In this document: piece after piece, positions 10,605 through 22,844 of the stretch | How the letters are laid out: the number at the start of each line of letters is the position of its first letter | Position numbering within the stretch: the first letter of the stretch is position 1 | NCBI GenBank assembly: GCA_965238045.1 | Contig: CBDEGU010000007.1 | Coordinates: forward strand, 67,271-131,270 | From: Bryobacterales bacterium | GTDB lineage: Bacteria > Acidobacteriota > Terriglobia > Bryobacterales > UBA6623 | DNA: 64,000 bases | Direction of reading: 5' to 3' | Position numbers and translations under genes: made by a program | Notes under the pieces: generated by a model | What the model was told of the DNA's origin: nothing | Database searches by the model: none | Seen by the model: the letters and a program-made list of their open reading frames with translations, nothing else

Positions 10605-10692
10605 TGCTACTGTGTTGTAAAAATTCCGAGCCCCAAGATGTTGTACGGATCGCGCAATACCTCCCTGCCGCGATGGCAAGCAGAGTCTTTTG

Positions 10693-12540
10693 ATGCCGTC
10701 ATGGAAGCATCTTGATCATCTGGTGGCGCTGAAGGAGCGCGCCGCATCGCTGCCGGCATCTCCGGGAGTCTACCTCTACAAATCCGCCGCCGGGCAGGTC
10801 CTTTATATCGGCAAGGCCAAGAACCTGCGCGACCGCGTGCGGAGCTATTTTCTGCAAGAAAAGTTCGCCGATGTCAAGACGGGCACGCTGCTTTCCGAGG
10901 CCCGCGATATCGACTACATCGTGGTGGCGAATGAAAAAGAGGCGCTAGCGCTCGAGAACAACCTGATCAAGCAGAGCCAGCCTCGTTACAATGTTCTGCT
11001 CCGCGACGACAAGACCTACCCCTACATCAAACTGACCAAGGAGCGGTTTCCGCGTGTCTACGTCACGCGACGGCTGCGTAAGGACGGCGCAACCTACTTC
11101 GGTCCCTATTTCCCGGGAAACTTGGCTTACCGGCTCGTGAAATTCATCCACCGGCATTTTCGCGTTCCCTCATGCCGTGTCGATCTCACCCGCTTCCACC
11201 CCCGCCCGTGCCTGGAGTTTCACATTCACCGCTGCTGGGGTCCCTGCGTGGACGGGCTGACCAGCGACGAAGCCTACACTCAGGCGGTGAGCGACGTGCG
11301 GACATTCCTCGAAGGCCGGCGTCAGGATCTGGTCAAGGATTTGCGGCTGCGCATGGAGCAAGCCTCCGAGGGCATGGAGTTTGAACGCGCCGCCGCCCTG
11401 CGCGATCTGATCACCACCGTGGAGGAGCTCGACCAGCGCCAGCGAGTAGCGGCGGCGGAGGGACATGACGCCGATATCTTCGGTATTTGCGCCGAGCCGC
11501 CCCTGGTGGCCGTGAATCTGTTTCATGTTCGCAATGGACGCGTTGTGGACCGGCGGGCGTTTTATTGGGAAGACGCCGCGATGTATCACGAGTCCGACTT
11601 CCTGGCCAGTTTGATGAAACAAATCTATCTCGACGCCAACTATGTGCCGTCTCTGATTCACACCCCGGCCGGGTTTGACGACCAGGAACTGCTCGAGGAG
11701 TTCCTCACCGAAAAACGAGGCCGCAAAGTCGTCATCTCCACTCCCCGGCGGGGATCGAAGAAGGCCATGCTGGATCTAGTCCAGACCAACGCGCGGCATG
11801 GTTTTGAACAGCGGTTTCGGATCAGCAAGCCAAGCGCCAAGATGATGATGTCGGCGCTGGCCGAGGCGCTGAACTTGCCCGAAGTTCCCGCCCGCATAGA
11901 ATGTTTTGACATCTCGCACATCCAGGGGGCCGATACCGTGGCCTCGATGGTGGTCTGGGAAAACGGCCGGATGAACAAGTCCGGCTACCGCAAGTTCATC
12001 ATCAAAGGCGTGGCGGGCGTCGACGATTTCGCGTCGATGCGCGAAGCAGTCACGCGGCGCTATCGCCGCCTGCTGGAGGAGAACAAACCATTGCCGGGGC
12101 TGGTGCTCGTCGATGGAGGCATCGGGCAACTGCACTCTGCCGCCGAGGCGCTGGCTTCGCTGGGCATCATCAATCAGCCGCTGGCGGCCATTGCCAAGCG
12201 CGAGGAAACGATCTTCGTCGAGGGTCAAGAAAAGGACCCGGTGTACCTGGACCGCTTCTCGCCGATCCTGCACTTGGTGCAGATGGTTCGCGACGAAGCC
12301 CACCGGTTCGCTGTGACGTTCCATCGCAAGCGCAGGTCCCAGAGCCGCTTGCGGACCGTGCTGCTCGATGTGCCTGGAGTTGGAGAGAAGACAGCGCGAC
12401 AACTCCTGCGAAGCTTCGGCAGCCTGAAGAAGGTTCAAGCCAGCAGCCTGGAAGAACTGGCTCGGGTTGTAACACGCGCACAAGCCCAAAGCATCCATAA
12501 GCACTTTGCCGGCAGCCCCGCGGGAACATCCACGCTCTAA
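10693..12540 (+). CDS. uvrC: excinuclease ABC subunit C
   Basis: GIY-YIG N-terminus (GVYLYKSAAGQVLYIGKAKNLRDRVRSY), a UVR segment and a C-terminal HhH-like tail. ATG 10693 sits one codon inside the TTG-initiated ORF. Confidence 0.95.
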   Translation: MPSWKHLDHLVALKERAASLPASPGVYLYKSAAGQVLYIGKAKNLRDRVRSYFLQEKFADVKTGTLLSEARDIDYIVVANEKEALALENNLIKQSQPRYNVLLRDDKTYPYIKLTKERFPRVYVTRRLRKDGATYFGPYFPGNLAYRLVKFIHRHFRVPSCRVDLTRFHPRPCLEFHIHRCWGPCVDGLTSDEAYTQAVSDVRTFLEGRRQDLVKDLRLRMEQASEGMEFERAAALRDLITTVEELDQRQRVAAAEGHDADIFGICAEPPLVAVNLFHVRNGRVVDRRAFYWEDAAMYHESDFLASLMKQIYLDANYVPSLIHTPAGFDDQELLEEFLTEKRGRKVVISTPRRGSKKAMLDLVQTNARHGFEQRFRISKPSAKMMMSALAEALNLPEVPARIECFDISHIQGADTVASMVVWENGRMNKSGYRKFIIKGVAGVDDFASMREAVTRRYRRLLEENKPLPGLVLVDGGIGQLHSAAEALASLGIINQPLAAIAKREETIFVEGQEKDPVYLDRFSPILHLVQMVRDEAHRFAVTFHRKRRSQSRLRTVLLDVPGVGEKTARQLLRSFGSLKKVQASSLEELARVVTRAQAQSIHKHFAGSPAGTSTL

Positions 12541-12588
12541 ATTTTGATGCAAATCGTCCCTGATGGGAGATCATGCTCACCGCGCGGT

Positions 12589-12618
12589 TGTCAGCAGGCG
12601 GTGAAATACACTAGAATC
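12589..12618 (+). promoter_or_regulatory. candidate sigma70-type promoter TTGTCA-18-TAGAAT
   Basis: The hexamers were read directly. It lies ~80 nt upstream of the GTG start at 12700. Confidence 0.35.
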
Positions 12619-12699
12619 AGTGCACCATCGGGGACGTTTAAGTGAAATACGGCGGTCCGGCGTATCAGCGGGCCGAAAAGGCCGATCGAGGGGAAAGCT

Positions 12700-15600
12700 G
12701 TGCGACAACTCTTGGCGTTGACTCTGCTCGCGGGCGGTGCGCTGTTCGCCGCGGACGCGGACGAAACCGTGCGCCGGGCCTCGGAACTGGAGCGGTCCGG
12801 CGACGTGGCGCTGGCCCGTGAAACTCTTGCCCGCGCGGCCAGAGAGAAGCCCGGCGACGCCGATACTCTGCTGGCCTACGCGGAGTTTCTCGACCGCTAC
12901 GCAGACCCCTCGCGCAGACGCCTGTACGAAAATGCCCTGAAAGCTCTCGGGGCGTCGGGATCCGCGGACTTGCGCCGGCGCATTGAACGCCGTCTCGTCC
13001 TGCTGGCGCTGGCGGCCGATGACGTCGAAGCCGCGCGGCGCGGCCTGGAGGCGTATCGCGCCAGCGGGGCGGCGGATCTGGAACTTCCCATCCTGACCGC
13101 GGACCCTGCCGCGCTGGCCGCCAGCACCGGCCGCGGCCGAGCCAGAATCCCTGGCCCGTTTAACTCGTTTCGCCGTATGGCGGCGTTGTCGACCGACCAG
13201 CAGCCGAAGGACCTGGTCGCGGCGCTCGCCCGCAACGTCGTCACGAGTGGATATCGGGCCAGCGGCGGCGGCGATTCACTCGGTCAAACCGAGTTCCTGA
13301 AACTCATCCTGCAGTATGTTTCCCAGGCACGAGAATTGGAGGATTTTGCCGGAGCGGACCAGACGATCACGATTTCGGCCTGCGAGTCTCGCGATACCGC
13401 CCGCATTCTCAAGATTCTCGGCTTCCGGCTGCGGAACGATTGCGGTCCCGAAGCCGTGCTGGAAACCGTCAATCCTTCACGCGCTTTCCTCTCGATCGAT
13501 TCCGGTTTTCCCATCGCGGACCTTGAGCAGGCCTTCCGCTCAGGCCAGCCCTTCCAGCTCCCCTACAAGCCGGCTCATCTGCCCGTGGTCTTCGGAACCG
13601 AATACTGGACCGGCATCGCTTCCAAGAAGAGCCAGGGCGACTTTCTGGATACATTCCTGCGAGATCCGATCCTCGCGCGGTTGTATGTCGCCATGGCGAA
13701 AATGCACCGGCCGACGGCCAGAGCGATGCGCGAGAAGATTCCCGGTGAGAGGCTGTTGCTTTTCGCCAACGTGCTGGATTTCTTCGGGGGCATGTTTGAA
13801 ATCCGGGACGGCGCGGCCGTGCTGCCGGGCGGAACAGGCACCAAAGATGTCTGGCGCAAACTCACCGGCGTGTCGCCGGACCAGGGAGCGGAGTTTTTCC
13901 AGAAACTGTGCGAAAAGGACGATGGCTGGATGGCTTCGTTCTACGATTCCCTGGCCCGCATCAGCGGAGCCGCGGCTCGCTACTACAACGAACCCGCCCG
14001 GCTAGAGCGATTCTATCGGGCGGTGCGCGGGAAGGTAACCAGCCCCGGCCCGGCGCGCCCCATCTTTCGTTCCAACAGCGATCTCATGCTGCTGGCGACC
14101 CGGCTGCATTTCCGGTCCGGCGGCGAAGTCCACATCCCGGGCGGCATCGAGGGGTGGCGGCGGCTGTTCACCGAGCACCCCCATGGCCAGTACGACGGAA
14201 AAATCACCCAAGCGGCTTCGTCGTGGACCGAACCAGACGATGTGGTCGAGGCGCTATTCGGACTTTCGCGCAAGATGGTCGAAAACGAGCCGCTTCGCAT
14301 GTTCATCGCGATTAGCAATATCGACCGTCATCGCTCGGTGCCGCTTGGAGCTGCCGCCGTCGAGCGGCTCATTCTCGCCTATCCAGAGTACGGCCAGCAG
14401 TTTTCCCTTTTTAACGACGCCCCGGCTCTGAGCGATCAGCACATCACCGCCTATCTGGACCTGTTGCCCAGCTTCGCCAAGATCAAGAATCAGGTACGCC
14501 GCGCCGACGCTGTCGGCGTGGCGCAAGCTCTCTTCGGACTGTGGCGCATCTTCGTCCGCCAGGGCCAGATCCCCCCCTCCGAGACGGGGGCTTCTCTCAA
14601 CTCGCTCATCGGCCTTGTCCAAGACGTGCAGAGTCACGAGAGCATCTTTGACGCCGGAAGAGCCGGCGTGCGCGCGCTGCTCGCCGCGGCGGGTTCCGCC
14701 GCGGACGCCCCGCCGCAGGAGCGGCTGATCCATCTGCTTGCTGGAACCCCCGGCGCGGGCGAGGAGCCCGAGCACGCCGAAGTGATCAAGCTGCTTAACT
14801 CCAGGTTTGCGACCCAGAGGCTCGTCTCTCTCAAGGACCTCTTCGATCTGGCCGACCACTTGGAGAGAGTCTCCCGCGGGGAAGGGTTCAATGTCGCGAT
14901 GGCTAACCGCCTGGCGGCGCGCATTTCCGAAGTGCGGCTTCCCCGATCGAGCCTTTCCAGCCAAGAGTCCAACAGTTTCGCCCGCGGCAATATCGTCGAG
15001 CGCCACGTCCGGCGCCAGCGGTCCTTGAATTTGAACCGCGAAGTGGATCGCGCGCGAGGCCGTTCCGAGAAGCTTCTCGAAATTCGCGGCCGGCTGGCTC
15101 CGATTCTGCGGGATTCTCTCGTGGGGCTCAACTATATTTACTATTCGCCGCCGGGCGCGGAACTGATTCGCGCCAACCCGCTGTTTGTGCGCAGCCATGA
15201 CTTCCTCGGTTCGGACGGCAGGAAGACCTGGGGCCGCCCGCGGCTGGCAGGCACGGGCTGGCCGAATAGCGGGGGCGGGCGCTTGAGCGGTTCGCTTTCC
15301 GGTCTGGCGTTCGCGCTGGCCTACGCCGAACAGAATTTTCTCGTGCCCACGGAACGGCAGGCTCTGATCTGGCAGGACCTCGCGCCCCAGATACTGATCG
15401 GCGCCACGGTCCCGCGCTGGTGGAACCTCGGCGCGGCCGACCTGCACTTCGTCGGGCTGCACATGCGGCTCGGCGAGACGCTGCTGGCCTCCGCGGCGCT
15501 GAACAAAGACCTTGCCGCCATCGTCAACCATCTCCTGCGCCGGCAGGTGGAACCGGCCCGCCGCGAGCGCATCGAAAGGAGCTTGCGCCAGGGAAAGGCA

Positions 15601-16125
15601 AGAAGCGGCATCAATGAATTGACGCCCTCGGAGCTTTACCACCTGGCGGTGAACTTTGCGCGGGAGCATGGCGGCCAAGCCGGGCAGTGGGGCTCGCCGT
15701 TCTGGAAGGACATTGAGGGCCTCAAGGCCAGCGATGCCGGCCGGTTCCGCTATGAGCGCGTGGCCTCGTTGTTCGGCACGCCTCACCCGGAGTTAGCCAG
15801 CTCGTATCGGTCCGATCTTTTGCATCTGCCTTTGTTCCCGACCATGATGGGCTATTCCAGCCGCATCATGGCCGAGAGCTGGGAGTCGACGAATTTGTAT
15901 TGGGCAGCTCTCGCCGACGAGTTGCATCTGCCGCCGGCACAGCTCAATCTCCTCGTGCCGCGGTGGACCAAGCGCTCGATTGAACGAATCTTCGCCACCC
16001 ATCTCGACGACTGGCCGGCGCTGCTCCACTCCATGCGGGTGGTTGGTGAGAACTACCGGAACCAGATCCGGTCGAGCGCGCTCAAACTAGAACACGCAGG
16101 CCCAGAACGCGCAAGCAGGGAATGA
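12700..16125 (+). CDS. large secreted hypothetical protein (1141 aa), N-terminal TPR-like region
   Basis: GTG start preceded by GAGGGGAAA and a signal-like MRQLLALTLLAGGALFAADA. I saw no catalytic motif (no HExxH, no CxxCH, no P-loop). Confidence 0.75.
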   Translation: MRQLLALTLLAGGALFAADADETVRRASELERSGDVALARETLARAAREKPGDADTLLAYAEFLDRYADPSRRRLYENALKALGASGSADLRRRIERRLVLLALAADDVEAARRGLEAYRASGAADLELPILTADPAALAASTGRGRARIPGPFNSFRRMAALSTDQQPKDLVAALARNVVTSGYRASGGGDSLGQTEFLKLILQYVSQARELEDFAGADQTITISACESRDTARILKILGFRLRNDCGPEAVLETVNPSRAFLSIDSGFPIADLEQAFRSGQPFQLPYKPAHLPVVFGTEYWTGIASKKSQGDFLDTFLRDPILARLYVAMAKMHRPTARAMREKIPGERLLLFANVLDFFGGMFEIRDGAAVLPGGTGTKDVWRKLTGVSPDQGAEFFQKLCEKDDGWMASFYDSLARISGAAARYYNEPARLERFYRAVRGKVTSPGPARPIFRSNSDLMLLATRLHFRSGGEVHIPGGIEGWRRLFTEHPHGQYDGKITQAASSWTEPDDVVEALFGLSRKMVENEPLRMFIAISNIDRHRSVPLGAAAVERLILAYPEYGQQFSLFNDAPALSDQHITAYLDLLPSFAKIKNQVRRADAVGVAQALFGLWRIFVRQGQIPPSETGASLNSLIGLVQDVQSHESIFDAGRAGVRALLAAAGSAADAPPQERLIHLLAGTPGAGEEPEHAEVIKLLNSRFATQRLVSLKDLFDLADHLERVSRGEGFNVAMANRLAARISEVRLPRSSLSSQESNSFARGNIVERHVRRQRSLNLNREVDRARGRSEKLLEIRGRLAPILRDSLVGLNYIYYSPPGAELIRANPLFVRSHDFLGSDGRKTWGRPRLAGTGWPNSGGGRLSGSLSGLAFALAYAEQNFLVPTERQALIWQDLAPQILIGATVPRWWNLGAADLHFVGLHMRLGETLLASAALNKDLAAIVNHLLRRQVEPARRERIERSLRQGKARSGINELTPSELYHLAVNFAREHGGQAGQWGSPFWKDIEGLKASDAGRFRYERVASLFGTPHPELASSYRSDLLHLPLFPTMMGYSSRIMAESWESTNLYWAALADELHLPPAQLNLLVPRWTKRSIERIFATHLDDWPALLHSMRVVGENYRNQIRSSALKLEHAGPERASRE

Positions 16126-16132
16126 GCCGCGC

Positions 16133-17218
16133 ATGGACCGGGGACAAAAGGAACCGCGGATGAAGAACGGCCGGATGAACAACAAGACGTTTCGCCATGG
16201 AAATCTGATCGTCGCGCTGGCGCTCGCCTGTGCCGCCGGACTCTTTCTCGCCGGAGACGCCGCCGTGGGCCAGCAGGTCAGCGGCGAGGGCCCCCTATTT
16301 CGCGTCAAGGTGGACTTGGTGCAGCTCAACGTCGCGGTCACCGACCGCCGCGGCCGCTACATCGGTCAGCTCGCTCCGGGCGACTTCCGCGTCTATGAAG
16401 ACGGCGTTCTTCAGAACCTCGCCAGTTTCGCCGAAGGCAATGAGGCTCCGCGGGCGATGGCCGCGACAGGTCCTCCCGCGACGCCCCAGCCTGCCACCGA
16501 AGCCGGACGGCTCGAACCCCGGCCTGCCGCGGCCCAGGCGCCCGCCGGAGAGTCGCTGGCTGGAACCAGTGTATTCGTTCTCTTCGACACCAGCAATTTC
16601 ATGTACCGCAGTTTTGTCTACGCCGAGGACGCTATCGCCGACTTCATCCGCGGACTCGATGACGCCGATTCGGTCGCCGTGTACGGCTACAGCCGCAACC
16701 TCACCCGCAACGCTCCGCTGACCTCCAATCGCCGGGACGCCCTGCGGGGACTTCGGCTGGCAGTCGCCGGCGATGAGACCGCCCTCTACAACTCGCTGCT
16801 TCTTACCTTAAGAGACGCCGCCCAGGTGCCCGGACGCAAGGTCATCATCGTGTTCTCAAACGGGCCCGATTCGGCCAGCACCGTGGCGCCCGACGACGTT
16901 CGCGCGATCGCCGAGGATGAAGGGATTCCGATCTATGTGATCAGCACCAAGGAAGTCAACAAGGACCCCATTTCCCGCAACGTATTCCGCCGTCTCACGC
17001 GCAGCACCGGAGGCAGAGCCTTCTTCGCCAAGAGCTGGCAGCGGCAGTCGGAAGCCTTTACCTCGATTCGCGAGGAACTGGGAAGCTCCTACACGCTCAG
17101 CTACTATCCGCGGGCCAACCCCAACCGGGGCTGGCGCAGCATCAACGTCGAACTCGTCAGCGACAAAGTGAAGAAATATCGTATCCGAACCCGCAGCGGC
17201 TACCGCCCCAAGCTCTGA
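16133..17218 (+). CDS. VWA-domain protein, acidobacterial VWFA-related type
   Basis: N-terminal module LFRVKVDLVQLNVAVTDRRGRYIGQLAPGDFRVYEDGV, then a VWA fold with a partial MIDAS (DTSNF, GDETALYN, SNGPDS). The start may be Met10 (16160, after AAAGGA). Confidence 0.8.
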   Translation: MDRGQKEPRMKNGRMNNKTFRHGNLIVALALACAAGLFLAGDAAVGQQVSGEGPLFRVKVDLVQLNVAVTDRRGRYIGQLAPGDFRVYEDGVLQNLASFAEGNEAPRAMAATGPPATPQPATEAGRLEPRPAAAQAPAGESLAGTSVFVLFDTSNFMYRSFVYAEDAIADFIRGLDDADSVAVYGYSRNLTRNAPLTSNRRDALRGLRLAVAGDETALYNSLLLTLRDAAQVPGRKVIIVFSNGPDSASTVAPDDVRAIAEDEGIPIYVISTKEVNKDPISRNVFRRLTRSTGGRAFFAKSWQRQSEAFTSIREELGSSYTLSYYPRANPNRGWRSINVELVSDKVKKYRIRTRSGYRPKL

Positions 17219-17279
17219 TCCGCGCTTCTCACTGCGTTGTTCGCCGCGCCGGCACAGGCCCCTGGATTTCTCCCAGGCA

Positions 17280-20200
17280 CTAACGCGCCTGGTATCCGGC
17301 CCGGGTTCGCACGATCGCGGCGGGCCGCTTCACCCTGACTTCGACGTTTCGCCAGGCGCCGTCGAAGTTCTGATTCTTCGGGTAATAAGCGACGGTGTAG
17401 ACGCTGCGCAGTTCCTTGGCCGCTTCGCGAAACGGCTGGGGGTCGTCCACCGAGGCAGCCAAAAACGCCCGCCCGCCCGAGGCAGCCGCCAGCGCTTCCA
17501 TGTTCTCGCGCGCTGTTGTTCCCACCCCTCCGGGGAAGGATCGCCTGCCGCCGTTGCCGAGAATGTAGGGGTAGATCAGCGTATCCATGTGGGCGACCGC
17601 CTGGCGCAGTTGTTCAAACGGCACCTTGGAAGCCGAGGCGACCACGCCGGGAACAAGCTCGGACGCATTCCGGCGTTTCCCGCGCTTCTTCCTTCGGCTC
17701 CGCTTGTCATCCTTCCCGTCGTCCCCGCCCGGATACAGGATCGACGCTAGCTGATTGTCGACCCCGTCGCTGACGATAATCAGGGCATTGCGCTCGCCGG
17801 GCAGTTGGCGCAGTTCTTCGTTGTAAGCCAGCACGATCGTATCGTAGAGAGGAGTGCCGCCGGAAACCGACGGAGCCGAATTGATACTAGAGGCCAGTTG
17901 CTCGCGGTCGCTCGTCAGGTGTGTCGCAACGGCGAACATCTCGGCGCTCAGGCCGTACACGGCAATGCGGTCGGTCGGTCTGGCGGTGGAAACAAAACGC
18001 GCCGCGGCGAGTTTCATCGCCGCGCGATCCTCGACGGTGCTGCCACTTAGATCGAGCAGCAGGACCAGATTGAACGGTGCGTCACCGGCGGTGAGGGCGC
18101 TGATCTCCTGCGGCACGCCGTCCTCGAGGATCTCGAAGTCTTCCACCGTAAGGCCGGTCGAAGGCACACCGCCGGTGCTGGTCACCGAGACCGCCAGGTT
18201 GACCATGCGGACACCGGACCGAAACACAATCGGCGCGGCGCTCTCCTGATTCGAAGCCGCGGGCGTCGTCACGGTTGGGGACGCGGATGGGGATCGAGCG
18301 GACACCGCGGATGGCCCTCGGCCGGCCCTCAAAATGGACTCCAGAACCGCCGGTGCTTGCCAGGACATCTTGACCGGCGAGTCTGCCGGAATCGGGATAT
18401 CCCGCAGCGTGACCCGGCCCGGCGAGACCGCCCTGACGTCGATCTTGCCGTAGGTGGACCGGTAGCGATCGTGCTGGTCGATGACGCCCCAGCCGGCCGC
18501 ACCCGGATTGACGGCGATCTTGCCCCTTGCCGGCGGCTCGTAGGACTTCGGCGGCTCTTTGGCCTCGATCGACAGCCGCGTTGCGTCCCACGGAACAGCG
18601 ATCTCGATGTCGCCCCGCTGCGTGACGAGCTTCGTAAGAGCGGCCAGGCCTTGAACCGAGATCTTGCCATCGGCGGTTTCTGCCTCGAAGCCGTAGCCGT
18701 AAGGGATGTCGATTTCGATATCGATGCGCACATGATCGGAGGGCTTGGCGCGAATCGTCGTCTTGCCCGGCTCCTGGATCGTGACCACGTCGCCCTGGCG
18801 GAGGTTGCGCGCCGGACTGCGGATCCGCAACTGGGGAGCGCTCTGCCGCATGACCCGCATCGTGACGTCGCCGTAGGGATTCTGAACGCGGATCGTCGTG
18901 CCCGAGGGACCCTCGAAACGGCGTTCCTTCTCCCACTCGCCGAGGCGACGCTGGATGTCGGCGGCCTTGGGCGAATCGGGCACAAGCGCGAGATAGGCAC
19001 GGTACTCCCGCGCCGCGTCCTCGAGCTTGCCTTGCTGAGAAAAGATCGATCCCAGAAGCTGATGCGTGCCCGGATAGTCGCCCCCGCGCTCATCGGCCTG
19101 AACGTTCCTGGCCTGCGCCACCGCGGCATCGGTTTCGCCCAGGCGGTAGAGCGCCATCGCGTTGTAATAGCGCGCGCCGATCAGGCGCGGGTTGGTCTCG
19201 ACGAGCTGGCTGGAAAGTTCGGCCACATCGTCCCATTTTTCGTTGGCGACATGGACTTTCAGTTCATCGAGCGAGCGCACGGTCGCCCAGATCCGAATTT
19301 GCTCGGCAACTTGCGTCTTGTCGGCCGCTTCGGGCCGCACCGACAGATAGTCGCGGTAGGCCTGCGTGGCTTCACTAAACCTGCCCTCGCTGGCGTGGAT
19401 CAGCCCCAGCAACTGATAGGCCTGCGCGTAGCGGCCCACATCGCTCGCCGTCACCACCCGCCGCACCGCATGCTCCGCTTCCTGAGGCTTGCCCAGATTA
19501 AACAACGCCGTGGCGCGATAGAAATGTCCGTCCGTGCGTTCGTGCGCCTTGGCGATGAGGGCGTCGGCCCCTTCGAGCGCTTTGTTCCATCGGCTGGCGC
19601 GAACATCGAGCCGCACAGCATGAGACAGAGGATTGATATAGTCGCCGTCGGCTTCCACCGCCTTCTCGTAAGCCTCGATGGCGCCGCCAAAGTCGCCCGT
19701 CTTCTCGCGGGAATAACCCAGTACATTCCACGCTACCGCGAAGCCCTCGTATTCCTTGGTGGCCGCGTCGAGATACTCAATCGCACGGGGGAAATTCGGA
19801 TTCTCCGAAGCCAGGGTTTCATAGGCTTTTTTGTACGCCCGCAGGGCCGGCAGCGGGGCTTCGGCGGTCGTTGCGCTCGGCGAGGGTCCCAGGATCGCCT
19901 CGAGTTGCTTGTGCTGCTCGGCTTCCATGAACTTCCGAAACTCGCGGTCATCAAAGAAGCCCTCGCGGTAGCTGAGCTTGACTTTGGGCGCGCTGACGGT
20001 GATCCGTATCTTTCGGAAATCATCCTCGTTCTCCGATTCCTTCGGATAGTAACCGAGCAAATAGTAGCCGCTAAGATCCTCGCGAACCTTCTTGAAAATC
20101 TCGCCGACATCGTTGGTGTTGAGCACCGCGGTTCCGTCAGTGAGTTCCGCGAGAGTCTTCAATCCGTTCTGACTATTGCGGAAGGCATCGTCCATCCCGC

Positions 20201-21269
20201 CGGTGATCGGCTCCGAACCGCGCACGAATCCAGGCACACCCGCGCCAACTTGACCCGGGGTGAATCGGAGTTCCGTGGCCAGGTCGCTGTATGCCGCGCT
20301 GCTGATCTCCCCGCCGACTTCCAAGCCGCGCGCATCCACCACATAGAGGCTGATGCGCGCCCGCATCGATTCGGACCGCAGGCGTGTCATTAAGTCGTTG
20401 TTCTGCAAATTGACGAACTGCTGCAGAAATGAGTCAAATCCAATCCAAAATCCTTGCGCGAATAGCACAATCATCTTTTTGCCCGGGTAAACGCCGAGAC
20501 CGCGAATCATGTCGATATAGCGGTAGAAGCGCGCCCGGCCAAATTGGTCTTGCAGCAGGTCGACCGTTCCCCGCTCCGCCACGCTGTCGCCCTGAAGGAT
20601 GGCTATGAGGTCAGGGCCCTCCTGGGCATTAGGTTCCTCGGGACTGGTCTGGGTGTTTGTCGAGGCAAACGGATCGTTTCCCTCCCGGACAATAATGTGC
20701 CTCTGAAAGTCAGGCTCCGCGCCCGCGAGGACATCCAAGCTTTGATCCAGTTCCAGAAGCTTCAACAGCAGCTTCTTGTCGGAAACAAACGGGGTGCCAT
20801 TGAGCGAAACGAGCACGCCAGGCTGCAGGTCCTTTTCGATGAACTTCTGGATGGCGCGCCGCGTGCGGGGCCGCTCCGCCTCGGTAATGTGGGTGGCGAT
20901 GAAGATGCGCGCCGTTCTCGGGTCCATCGCCGCGGGCGGGCTCGTACTCTCGGAGGCGGCTTGCCCCTCCGCCGCCGCCGCTTCGTCCGCCCCGCCCCGG
21001 AAGACATCGATATATTCGAGGTTCACGAGCTGTTGCGGAACACCGTTCTCGAGCAGCGTAAAGTCTTCCTTGCTCAGACCTTCGACCGGTCGCTTGCCGC
21101 GCCCGGTGACCCTGACCTCAATTTCCATCAGGGCCGTGCCACCGCGGAAAACCGGGTCGGCGGGCTGTTGAGCGGCATCGGGGGGCTGCGGGGGTGGCTG
21201 TTGCGCCGAGAGCGCGAGGCCACAGCCGAAGACCGCGATCACGCTAGTGCGCCAAAGCTGAGAGAGCAT
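17280..21269 (-). CDS. 1329-aa secreted protein: degenerate VWFA-type module, TPR array, beta-rich region, intact VWA domain
   Basis: Two copies of the FR...V.V.V....G..V.GL..EDF...EDGVPQ module. The TPR-like repeats span roughly aa 470-800. The C-terminal MIDAS is DLSGS / GGTPLYD / SDGVDN. Confidence 0.85.
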   Translation of the reverse strand: MLSQLWRTSVIAVFGCGLALSAQQPPPQPPDAAQQPADPVFRGGTALMEIEVRVTGRGKRPVEGLSKEDFTLLENGVPQQLVNLEYIDVFRGGADEAAAAEGQAASESTSPPAAMDPRTARIFIATHITEAERPRTRRAIQKFIEKDLQPGVLVSLNGTPFVSDKKLLLKLLELDQSLDVLAGAEPDFQRHIIVREGNDPFASTNTQTSPEEPNAQEGPDLIAILQGDSVAERGTVDLLQDQFGRARFYRYIDMIRGLGVYPGKKMIVLFAQGFWIGFDSFLQQFVNLQNNDLMTRLRSESMRARISLYVVDARGLEVGGEISSAAYSDLATELRFTPGQVGAGVPGFVRGSEPITGGMDDAFRNSQNGLKTLAELTDGTAVLNTNDVGEIFKKVREDLSGYYLLGYYPKESENEDDFRKIRITVSAPKVKLSYREGFFDDREFRKFMEAEQHKQLEAILGPSPSATTAEAPLPALRAYKKAYETLASENPNFPRAIEYLDAATKEYEGFAVAWNVLGYSREKTGDFGGAIEAYEKAVEADGDYINPLSHAVRLDVRASRWNKALEGADALIAKAHERTDGHFYRATALFNLGKPQEAEHAVRRVVTASDVGRYAQAYQLLGLIHASEGRFSEATQAYRDYLSVRPEAADKTQVAEQIRIWATVRSLDELKVHVANEKWDDVAELSSQLVETNPRLIGARYYNAMALYRLGETDAAVAQARNVQADERGGDYPGTHQLLGSIFSQQGKLEDAAREYRAYLALVPDSPKAADIQRRLGEWEKERRFEGPSGTTIRVQNPYGDVTMRVMRQSAPQLRIRSPARNLRQGDVVTIQEPGKTTIRAKPSDHVRIDIEIDIPYGYGFEAETADGKISVQGLAALTKLVTQRGDIEIAVPWDATRLSIEAKEPPKSYEPPARGKIAVNPGAAGWGVIDQHDRYRSTYGKIDVRAVSPGRVTLRDIPIPADSPVKMSWQAPAVLESILRAGRGPSAVSARSPSASPTVTTPAASNQESAAPIVFRSGVRMVNLAVSVTSTGGVPSTGLTVEDFEILEDGVPQEISALTAGDAPFNLVLLLDLSGSTVEDRAAMKLAAARFVSTARPTDRIAVYGLSAEMFAVATHLTSDREQLASSINSAPSVSGGTPLYDTIVLAYNEELRQLPGERNALIIVSDGVDNQLASILYPGGDDGKDDKRSRRKKRGKRRNASELVPGVVASASKVPFEQLRQAVAHMDTLIYPYILGNGGRRSFPGGVGTTARENMEALAAASGGRAFLAASVDDPQPFREAAKELRSVYTVAYYPKNQNFDGAWRNVEVRVKRPAAIVRTRAGYQAR

Positions 21270-21429
21270 CAGGGACCTCCTGCCTGCCTGCCGCGGGATG
21301 CGCGGAAGGCTGGACCGATTTCACAGGCGGGCGTCGCATGCCCCGCCACCGACTTGCCACGGCTGCGCCGGAACGCCACGGCGCCGCCCGCATTGCACAG
21401 CCGCTTAGACGAAACCGGCACAGGAAAAG

Positions 21430-22038
21430 TTACCGGTTGCCTGCTCCAGGCGCGGACCGCCGCCGAATTTCTTCCTTCTGAGCCGACAGGATCATTTCAT
21501 ATACCGATTTGGCGTCCGGGATCAGCTCGAACCGCGGCAGGTCGTTCTGGCTCGAGCCTGGAAAGCCGGGCAGCACGGCCATGACCGCTCCATAGGGCGA
21601 GGTTCCGAACGAGATCGTCCCCTCGCCGGCCGTGTTCTGGGCGCTCGTGCTCTGGGTGATCGAGACTTCTGGGAGCGTATCGAAGTGAAGCGACTGACGG
21701 GTTTGCGAGAACATGCCGGACGTAATGATGATGCGTCCATCGGTGACGCCGTAGCAGGTGTTGGCGCGCTTTTTGGCGTCCATGAGAAAGCGGACGACCA
21801 AGAAATACAGAACCACGGCCACGAAAGGTATTCCCACAATCGAGAGAAAGGGGGCCGATTTTTGCAGGTCCAGCAGCTTCGCTTGCCAGAGAATCGCGAA
21901 CCCCACCCACCCCAGCGTCATCGGAACCAGAAACATATCAATCGGGCGCAGCACCAGCCCTTGCCGGGGCCGGCCGCTCCAAAGGAGCTTCTCGCCCGGA
22001 AAGAGATGGGTCCGCATCACTGTCTCCGCTTCATTCAT
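21430..22038 (-). CDS. PH-domain-like membrane protein
   Basis: FPGEKLLWSGRPRQG followed by two hydrophobic helices, typical of bacterial PH (YdbS/YdbT-like) proteins. Start taken at MNEAETV. The ORF extends to 22161. Confidence 0.6.
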   Translation of the reverse strand: MNEAETVMRTHLFPGEKLLWSGRPRQGLVLRPIDMFLVPMTLGWVGFAILWQAKLLDLQKSAPFLSIVGIPFVAVVLYFLVVRFLMDAKKRANTCYGVTDGRIIITSGMFSQTRQSLHFDTLPEVSITQSTSAQNTAGEGTISFGTSPYGAVMAVLPGFPGSSQNDLPRFELIPDAKSVYEMILSAQKEEIRRRSAPGAGNR

Positions 22039-22175
22039 GGGACGATGTTCCCGGTCATCTTCGTTCGGCGGTCTTAGTTTACAACGCTCGTTCGCCGGCG
22101 GCAACGGTGCAGGTAGTCGGTCCTCTGCATCACGGTTCACGATAGAATACGAGATCGCCACCGCGCGAAATTGCC

Positions 22176-22844
22176 TTGCGAAAGAATCTAGTGCCGGCGG
22201 CCCTGGCGATGGCCGCGCTCGGCGTACTGCTCTACTTCGCCGGGCGGTTTGGCCTCTTCAGCCGCCTGAGCGACTATGACCAGTTGGTCGAATTCATGCG
22301 CCGCGAAGGCGCCGCCGGACCGCTGATCTGCGTCGGCGTGCAGTTTGTGCAGGTCGTCATTTTCGCGATTCCCGGCGAGATTACTCAGTTCGCCGCCGGG
22401 TATGTCTTCGGCGCGGTGAGGGGCTTTCTCTATTCGGTCGCCGGGATTATGCTCGGTTCGGCGTTCAACTACTCTTTCGCTCGGCTGGTGGGGCGTCCGG
22501 TGATGGAGCGGTTCATGGGCGAGCGGCTTTTGAACAAGGTGGATGGATTGCTGGAATCGCGCAAGGGCAAGTCCGCGTTATTCGTGCTATTCCTTCTGCC
22601 GGGCATGCCGAAGGATGCGATGTCCTATGGCGCCGGGTTGTCGCGGCTGGGGATGGGCGAGTTCATCGTCATTTCCGGCTTGGCGCGAGCGCCGGCCCTG
22701 CTTTTCAGTACGCTGATTGGAGCGCAACTCTATGAACGCGACTATCGCGCCATCGCGGTGACGGCCGTCGTCGGCTTAGTGGCGATCGGCGGATTCTACT
22801 GGTACGAGACTCGGCGGCGTGCCCATGGGCATGGCGCCCCATGA
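22176..22844 (+). CDS. TVP38/TMEM64 (DedA-related) membrane protein
   Basis: VQFVQVVIFAIPGEITQFAAGYVFG signature. TTG start, with an in-frame GTG at 22191. Confidence 0.75.
   Translation: MRKNLVPAALAMAALGVLLYFAGRFGLFSRLSDYDQLVEFMRREGAAGPLICVGVQFVQVVIFAIPGEITQFAAGYVFGAVRGFLYSVAGIMLGSAFNYSFARLVGRPVMERFMGERLLNKVDGLLESRKGKSALFVLFLLPGMPKDAMSYGAGLSRLGMGEFIVISGLARAPALLFSTLIGAQLYERDYRAIAVTAVVGLVAIGGFYWYETRRRAHGHGAP

Follow-up and report, generated by a model that had tools for sequence, protein, structure and literature searches.

The stretch of DNA considered here comprises 64,000 nucleotides (nt) from a member of the Bryobacterales (Acidobacteriota; assembly GCA_965238045.1, contig CBDEGU010000007.1, positions 67,271 to 131,270) and is referred to, in its whole length, as the window. 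Between its positions 12,700 and 21,269 it contains three large open reading frames (ORFs), which encode proteins of 1141, 361 and 1329 amino acids (aa), the latter two with von Willebrand factor type A (VWA, VWFA) domains; signal-peptide-like N-termini are found on all three products. The original prediction, made from the sequence of the window, gave these ORFs exactly as they are present (coordinates, strands and lengths) and considered them a single block that could encode an envelope or extracellular assembly system. The locus thus raises the question of which of the three genes belong together and what their products might do. Here we report that the unit is real and well delimited, but that it consists of two genes and not of the proposed three, and that no surprising mechanism is indicated yet. 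Comparison of related loci shows the gene for the 1141-aa protein (hereafter the large protein) and the gene for the 361-aa VWA protein (the VWA partner) to be an order-wide, bicistronic and vertically inherited pair, both products of which carry predicted export signals.

Conservation of the gene pair

Homologues of the large protein were sought with a word-indexed search, with an exhaustive profile search and in GTDB contigs (one genome per species). The word-indexed search yielded at least 1619 homologues, the best 120 of which were full-length and 54-98% identical, the profile search yielded 2378 cluster representatives with E<0.001, and the protein was found to be encoded by 119 species. 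The label 'orphan', under which the protein had been introduced, is therefore wrong; judged by these similarities, it is a member of a large and well conserved family that as yet has no name. The best 80 of the 119 species loci, each with 8 kb of flanking DNA, were used for the species-level comparisons. All 80 are from Bryobacterales/Acidobacteriota, and their large proteins are 45-68% identical.

When the proteins of the window were compared with these 80 loci using tblastn, the VWA gene was located directly downstream of the large gene and on the same strand in all 77 loci with downstream DNA; the remaining three contigs break off within the large gene or at its end. Across loci the VWA partner is 60-79% identical, i.e., better conserved than the large protein. 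Regarding the gaps between the two genes (66 loci, longest downstream ORF), the values ranged from -188 to +447 nt, with 52 of the 66 lying within -4 to +55 nt. The pairwise identities of the large and VWA proteins are correlated with r=0.96 over the 66 loci, for which vertical co-inheritance alone suffices as an explanation. The other flanking genes vary by lineage and are housekeeping genes (among them those for the CCA-adding enzyme, an aldehyde dehydrogenase, adenylosuccinate synthetase and MoeA). An orthologue of the 1329-aa protein was found within 8 kb of the pair in none of the 80 species loci, including the closest ones at 63-66% identity.

The same arrangement occurs in a paralogue family whose members measure 1.6-1.75 kaa (thousand amino acids), are 20-23% identical to the large protein over the whole core and begin with about 550 residues of clear tetratricopeptide repeats (TPRs); the named members are from Bryobacteraceae. 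In the four paralogue loci that were examined singly, a VWA gene of 266-291 aa follows, with a 4-nt start/stop overlap in three and a 50-nt gap in the fourth. A metagenome scan returned 80 paralogue loci, 76 of which had usable downstream DNA, and the VWA partner was encoded immediately after the large gene in 74 of these. Because the paralogue family keeps the order of large gene and VWA gene, the pairing is, as read from gene order, older than the duplication into two subfamilies, and these comparisons show that the ancestor of the pair was duplicated once. Regarding the surroundings of the paralogues, an extracytoplasmic function (ECF) sigma factor gene, a small ORF and a DUF4252 gene lie directly upstream of one paralogue pair on the same strand (L082:6507-7903), a single case that could be a regulatory link. 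In a side branch of the long-TPR paralogues (P0322 and P0323), a DUF481 gene is found upstream and a DsbA/thioredoxin-like gene downstream; DUF481 and DsbA are envelope-associated families.

A natural fusion was also encountered. In the 1308-aa ORF P0325 (L087:6527-10453), a TPR region, a part of the large core and, at the C-terminus, a VWA domain are united; of the large core, approximately the first 870 residue-equivalents are present (hhalign probability 100%, E=2e-68). We regard the fusion as supportive rather than decisive for a coupling of the two proteins. Together with the same-strand adjacency in 77 of 77 and 74 of 76 loci, it supports the view that the large protein and its VWA partner are functionally coupled.

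Expression signals and gene starts

The promoter-like sequence upstream of the large gene (Table 1) is the sole match of its kind within positions 12400-21700. A corresponding element, TTGTCA/TTGTAA-N17-18-TAnAAT, was aligned upstream of the orthologous large gene in 12 of 20 related loci. The loci bearing it (L001, L004-L006, L011, L015, L019, L020, L022, L066, L071 and L078) represent distantly related Bryobacterales, and the element is followed in them by a leader of 60-90 nt that is variable in sequence. Judged from gene order and these signals, the pair is a two-gene operon (positions 12588-17218) with its own conserved sigma-70-like promoter. An Rfam scan of positions 12000-22500 gave zero matches at E<=0.1, so that neither a riboswitch nor another kind of RNA element was recognized in the spacers. 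Intrinsic terminators were likewise rejected, as terminator-like hairpins were no commoner than in shuffled sequence.

The gap of 7 nt between the large stop codon and the VWA start, as originally described, applies to the longest ORF; the start at 16160 used in public gene calls makes it 34 nt. In-frame ATG codons of the VWA gene are located at 16133, 16160 and 16175. The public calls give a 352-aa product (start 16160) for the strain of the window and a 347-aa form in close relatives, the exact 361-aa product being absent from them, and the orthologues can be aligned only from about residue 47. With either start the spacing of the two genes looks operonic.

Features of the large protein

Thirty-three orthologues align over their full length, with a mean column identity of 65% and more than 200 invariant positions. 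All 33 share a basic N-terminus, a hydrophobic core and a small-residue cleavage motif, which bears out the signal-like N-terminus reported earlier. No transmembrane segment is predicted in the large protein, the hydropathy maximum (1.28) being reached at the signal peptide only. A membrane protein, as suggested by non-significant top Foldseek matches, was thus ruled out, since no hydrophobic segment follows the signal peptide.

Regarding known families, residues 130-1141 of the window protein gave no match in Pfam, NCBIfam or PADLOC at E<=0.1, and the 33 homologues gave no match at E<=1 except to TPR. A profile of the large protein matched solely designed TPR proteins among all PDB sequences, and domain-library scans covering the three proteins, the 33 orthologues and distant paralogues returned TPR and VWA matches only. 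The N-terminal similarity to TPR is itself below threshold (Pfam TPR_14, E=0.0035, 18.3 bits, gathering score 23.5), and sub-threshold TPR_14 matches occur in 24 of the 33 homologues. These matches, the helices modelled for residues 20-121 and local superpositions on the TPR domain of LpoP agree with the earlier assignment of a TPR-like character to the first ~120 residues.

An AlphaFold2 model of the full-length protein, built with the 33-sequence alignment, reached a mean predicted local distance difference test score (pLDDT) of 79.4 and a predicted template modelling score (pTM) of 0.80. Residues 20-121 are modelled as seven helices (pLDDT 85-93) and residues 146-296 as a mixed alpha/beta region, the remainder being nearly all helical; residues 140-520 modelled alone gave pLDDT 90 and pTM 0.86. 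A fold match was accepted at a Foldseek E-value of 0.001 or less or at a meaningful TM-score, and the large protein remained below this level in both PDB and BFVD. Against PDB, the best E-value was 0.27 for the full-length model, with TM-scores below 0.15 (local TPR matches excepted), and 1.3 for residues 140-520 (probability 0.06); against BFVD, the best E-value for the full-length protein was 0.079.

Conservation and pLDDT are uncorrelated over the large protein (r=-0.03). The five best-conserved segments, namely residues 441-460 (TSPGPARPIFR), 851-860 (GTGWPxSGGGR), 881-910 (PTERQALIWQDLAPQ..TVPRWW), 1041-1060 (LPLFPTMMGYSSR) and 1091-1110 (ERIFATHLDDWPAL), are modelled with some of the lowest confidence in the protein (pLDDT 40-67); exceptions are the interior stretches 861-870 and 1061-1090, at 81-89. 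Within residues 851-910 the column identity is 0.78-0.90, with the lowest value in the 861-870 block, and five of the six 10-residue blocks have a pLDDT of 44-67, the exception being again 861-870 (82). Given this combination in the model, these loops are candidate partner- or ligand-binding loops.

The search for catalytic signatures confirmed that HExxH, CxxCH and P-loop motifs are absent from the large protein. The doubt previously expressed about GxSxG is justified as well, as the sole instance (GDSLG at residue 191) is situated in a poorly conserved, low-confidence loop. Residues 146-520 contain the motifs KDDGW, RFY and TSPGPARP as well as the cysteines Cys228 and Cys248; because both are invariant in an exported protein, they probably form a disulfide. 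This invariance applies to the main family, both cysteines being absent from the paralogues. A cysteine protease or transglutaminase acting through Cys228 was ruled out, since no conserved His/Asp partner is present and the Cys228/Cys248 pair points to a disulfide. The motif PLFVR-x-H-x-F (R831 and H833) is found family-wide in the helical body. Positions conserved in the two subfamilies alike are occupied mostly by Gly, Pro, Trp, Tyr, Phe and Leu, and the long polar motifs are subfamily-specific.

Features of the VWA partner

The 361-aa protein matches TIGR03436 (acidobact_VWFA) from end to end (153.7 bits, cut-off 81.25; model positions 2-322 of 324). Pfam VWA_2 (PF13519; threshold 27) is matched with 34.1 bits by this protein and with 33.2 bits by the 1329-aa protein. 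The VWA core is flanked by N- and C-terminal segments that are conserved throughout the family. A low-complexity linker rich in Pro and Ala and of variable length (window positions 16430-16560, residues ~100-143) lies between the N-terminal segment and the core; the C-terminal VWFA module of the 1329-aa protein has no such linker. Among the PDB sequences, a profile of the VWA partner matched generic VWA domains (4rck, 8s05 and integrin I-domains). The nearest solved VWA cores are those of two uncharacterised bacterial proteins, followed by integrin alpha I-domains (E 0.01 or weaker).

The metal ion-dependent adhesion site (MIDAS) of the protein departs from the canonical pattern DxSxS...T...D. 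Among 67 orthologues, the motif reads DTSNF in 56 and DTSNY in 11, with no other variant, and the downstream MIDAS Thr (GDETA) and Asp (SNGPD) are kept. In the partner of the paralogue the motif is canonical (DTTGS in 63 of 72, followed by TAL and DGDD). As DTSN[F/Y] occurs in 67 of 67 orthologues together with the retained Thr and Asp, the sequence pattern of the MIDAS of the VWA partner shows fixation and not decay, and the two subfamilies have different versions of it.

The VWA partners start with a hydrophobic signal or anchor, in which a lipobox Cys is not conserved. Lipoprotein anchoring was ruled out, the protein of the window having no canonical lipobox and those of L083 and L081 having no Cys at this position.

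Proposed function of the pair

From these sequence comparisons we infer, with a probability of roughly 0.4, that the pair encodes a Sec-exported complex of two subunits that acts outside the cytoplasm, the large protein being a non-catalytic scaffold and the VWA partner a binding head. A promoter of the sigma-70 type would drive the large gene and then the gene for a Sec-exported VWA protein of ~350 aa belonging to the acidobacterial VWFA family, and the two products would be stably associated, either in the periplasm or on the surface of the cell. The large protein would present its invariant flexible loops and its TPR domain to partners, and the DTSN[F/Y] MIDAS face of the VWA subunit would grip either the large subunit or an external ligand. 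A scaffold is favoured because the residues common to both subfamilies are mostly of structural type, because the polar motifs are subfamily-specific and change together with the MIDAS of the partner, as co-evolving interfaces do, and because disorder is predicted for the invariant loops of the protein on its own.

Several observations weigh against this explanation. The fusion P0325 is known from one Logan-assembled contig only and may have arisen by deletion or as an assembly artefact. Two related genes, P0323 (L086:8001-13393) and P0322 (L088:4719-12008) of the side branch mentioned above, have no VWA neighbour. The very high conservation of the large protein (the column identity and invariant positions given above for the 33 orthologues) and its invariant polar motifs ETVNPSRAF, HPHGxYDG, DHLERVSRGE, AEQNF and ESWES would also fit the active site of an enzyme. 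Six residues, D407, R434, R545, Q706, R831 and H833, do not vary among 15 aligned sequences that span both subfamilies, and could be catalytic; in a deeper 49-sequence alignment of residues 140-520, D407 and R434 are nearly invariant (>=90%).

The main rival takes up these last points and regards the large protein as a new type of extracytoplasmic enzyme, acting for example on a polysaccharide, on peptidoglycan or on another envelope or soil polymer, with the VWA protein as its substrate-binding or regulatory subunit. The invariant charged and polar motifs, loops rich in Gly and Pro of the kind typical of active-site lids, and the export of the protein in a group of soil heterotrophs are all in its favour. 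However, neither Pfam, NCBIfam, PDB profiles nor Foldseek matched a catalytic family or fold, and the neighbourhood has no conserved link to glycan or peptidoglycan genes. Moreover, enzyme families usually keep their catalytic residues, but most of the polar motifs are not common to the 20%-identity paralogues, and HPHGxYDG is already lost in the 40-42%-identity orthologues P0124 and P0126, which also rules this motif out as a metal site characteristic of the family. An enzyme is a doubtful, if serious, candidate.

A more far-reaching interpretation concerns the fold of the large protein as well. The core of ~1000 residues would be a new fold and the pair a hitherto unrecognised, order-wide, two-component envelope machine of the Bryobacterales, in which a VWA protein with a re-engineered MIDAS locks onto the invariant flexible loops; it would be either a bacterial adhesion or matrix-binding complex of a new kind or a new class of extracellular polymer-processing enzymes, duplicated once into a long-TPR version with a canonical-MIDAS partner. 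We consider this unlikely as a whole. Irrespective of such details, a role in protein interaction in the envelope or outside the cell is the most reasonable reading for the large/VWA pair; this part of the original prediction stands, and the inclusion of the 1329-aa protein in the system does not.

The convergent neighbour

The 1329-aa protein carries two VWFA modules of the acidobacterial type and TPRs, as had been recognized: it matches TIGR03436 with 302.1 bits in two stretches, above the cut-off, and comparisons by BLASTP and hidden Markov models place the VWFA copies at residues ~40-440 and 1015-1328. The C-terminal module contains a Lys/Arg-rich insertion, KRSRRKKRGKRR. For the beta-rich middle segment, a non-significant hint of Toastrack/DUF4097 (E=0.18) was the only result. 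The score for the XrtA/PEP-CTERM TPR lipoprotein PrsT (68.3 bits, cut-off 312.2) is generic TPR similarity.

That the three genes adjoin in the window and in near-identical strains, that all three products have signal peptides and that VWFA and TPR building blocks recur among them speak for a single envelope or extracellular assembly system of three proteins. Synteny largely refutes it, as none of the 80 related species loci has the 1329-aa gene within 8 kb of the pair, and the gene is moreover transcribed convergently; it adjoins the pair in near-identical strains only, and the six members of its 90%-identity cluster are located on the same contigs as the strain group of the window. The adjacency itself requires no special explanation: TIGR03436 is described in NCBIfam as a large paralogous expansion in Acidobacteria, so that two neighbouring members are unsurprising. 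Lack of co-conservation, which the original prediction had named as evidence against its unit, thus applies to the 1329-aa gene and does not apply to the large/VWA pair. A three-protein system is very unlikely; on the evidence of gene order and family membership, the 1329-aa protein is a separate neighbour that stems from the same expanded VWFA/TPR paralogue family. As originally noted for the whole block, none of the three products has an assignable catalytic activity.

Similarity to known systems

TIGR03436 provides the closest family, matched over its length by the VWA partner and twice by the 1329-aa neighbour. It has no known function, so that membership names the VWA partner without explaining it, and a literature search on TIGR03436 and acidobacterial VWFA proteins found nothing functional. 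Compared with the family at large, the orthologue group of the partner is distinguished by its fixed, non-canonical MIDAS DTSN[F/Y]; within this group, a large-protein partner is constantly present.

MIDAS-based adhesion complexes include the integrin I-domains and the Myxococcus VWA adhesin CglB with its TPR-containing Glt proteins. By analogy (for CglB/Glt with their general description), the VWA partner may be the metal-dependent head of a larger extracytoplasmic assembly containing TPRs. It differs from them in that no beta-propeller, gliding or pilus genes are found near the pair and in that its MIDAS lacks the second Ser; the similarity to integrins in the VWA core is marginal in sequence (E-values as given above). 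Residues 20-121 of the large protein superpose on the C-terminal TPR domain of LpoP (LpoP/LpoA TPR type; Foldseek probability 0.99, target-normalised TM-score 0.6-0.77), but this concerns ~105 residues of generic TPR fold with E-values of 1.8-3.4, and the other 1000 residues are unmatched.

The Bat system (Bacteroides aerotolerance; BatA-BatD, MoxR, DUF58) likewise has VWA and TPR proteins that are encoded together and have N-terminal hydrophobic segments. Here the scores are far below the NCBIfam cut-offs (BatA 20.5 vs. 380 bits, BatC 15.8 vs. 175), no MoxR ATPase, DUF58 or BatD gene is near the pair, and nothing in the Bat system corresponds to the ~1000-residue core of the large protein. 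A maturation or metal-insertion module of the MoxR-VWA, CoxE, NorD or Bat kind, in which the VWA protein would deliver a metal to the large protein or remodel it, is hardly credible: VWA proteins are common in such systems and weak matches to the BatA and VWA_CoxE models exist, but neither the window nor related loci have a MoxR/AAA+ or DUF58 gene close to the pair, the compartment to which both proteins are exported contains no ATP, the match to BatA has the low score given above, and no conserved metal-site motif of the large protein is common to both subfamilies. Known anti-phage defence systems were rejected, none of the three proteins having a PADLOC match.

Genomic context and feature coordinates

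The positions of all features are listed in Table 1. Upstream of the large gene are genes for two metallophosphoesterases, greA, a CDP-alcohol phosphatidyltransferase gene and uvrC; downstream genes encode a bPH-domain protein, a VTT-domain protein, a GNAT protein, an enolase-superfamily enzyme and a pterin-binding enzyme. The uvrC gene (window positions 10690-12540) is immediately upstream of the pair, as in 21 of the 80 species loci, which looks like synteny at the level of the lineage, with no obvious functional connection. The GC content is uniform over the three-gene region (0.60-0.66), and by this measure the region is without a mark of foreign DNA.

Table 1. Coordinates of the features described, in window numbering (residue numbers refer to the respective protein)
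Feature	Position	Strand	Basis or remark
Sigma-70-like promoter, TTGTCA-18 nt-TAGAAT	12588..12617	+	in the spacer of 159 nt that separates uvrC from the large gene; 10/12 consensus positions
Purine-rich Shine-Dalgarno-like stretch, GAGGGGAAAG	12688..12697	+	directly before the GTG start; read from the sequence
Gene, 1141-aa exported protein (large subunit; unnamed family)	12700..16125	+	ORF, GTG start
Predicted Sec-type signal peptide, residues 1-17, MRQLLALTLLAGGALFA/AD	12700..12750	+	hydropathy and homologues
TPR-like helical domain, residues 20-121	12757..13062	+	Pfam TPR_14, AlphaFold, Foldseek
Mixed alpha/beta and helical domain, residues 146-520	13135..14259	+	AlphaFold
Conserved low-confidence segment, residues 441-460, TSPGPARPIFR	14020-14079	+	
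All-helical body, residues 521-1141	14260..16125	+	AlphaFold secondary structure
Near-invariant Gly/Pro-rich loops GTGWPxSGGGR, PTERQALIWQDLAPQ and TVPRWW, residues 851-910	15250..15429	+	conservation vs. pLDDT
Conserved low-confidence segment, residues 1041-1110	15820-16029	+	1061-1090 blocks at pLDDT 81-89
Gene, exported VWA partner (small subunit), 361 aa from first ATG	16133..17218	+	ORF
Modified MIDAS of the VWA partner, D152-T-S-N-F156	16586..16600	+	aromatic residue replaces the second Ser of DxSxS
Convergent gene, 1329-aa exported protein	17280..21269	-	ORF
Intact C-terminal VWFA module, residues 1015-1328, DLSGS MIDAS	17286-18227	-	1329-aa protein
Beta-rich segment, residues ~790-1005	18255-18902	-	1329-aa protein; no family match
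TPR array, residues ~480-780	18930-19832	-	1329-aa protein
Degenerate N-terminal VWFA module, residues ~40-440	19950-21152	-	1329-aa protein; MIDAS motif wholly lost, large insertions

Significance

Bryobacterales, an order found widely in soil and peat, are difficult to study. Neither Pfam nor NCBIfam contains the family of the large protein, which occurs in at least 119 species and comprises two ancient paralogous lineages, and the pair gives one member of the VWFA family a fixed and testable partner. If the proposed complex is not confirmed, the locus is a well-delimited conserved hypothetical operon. If it is confirmed, the pair would provide the first handle on the function of the acidobacterial VWFA proteins, possibly together with a new fold and a new variant of MIDAS-based recognition.

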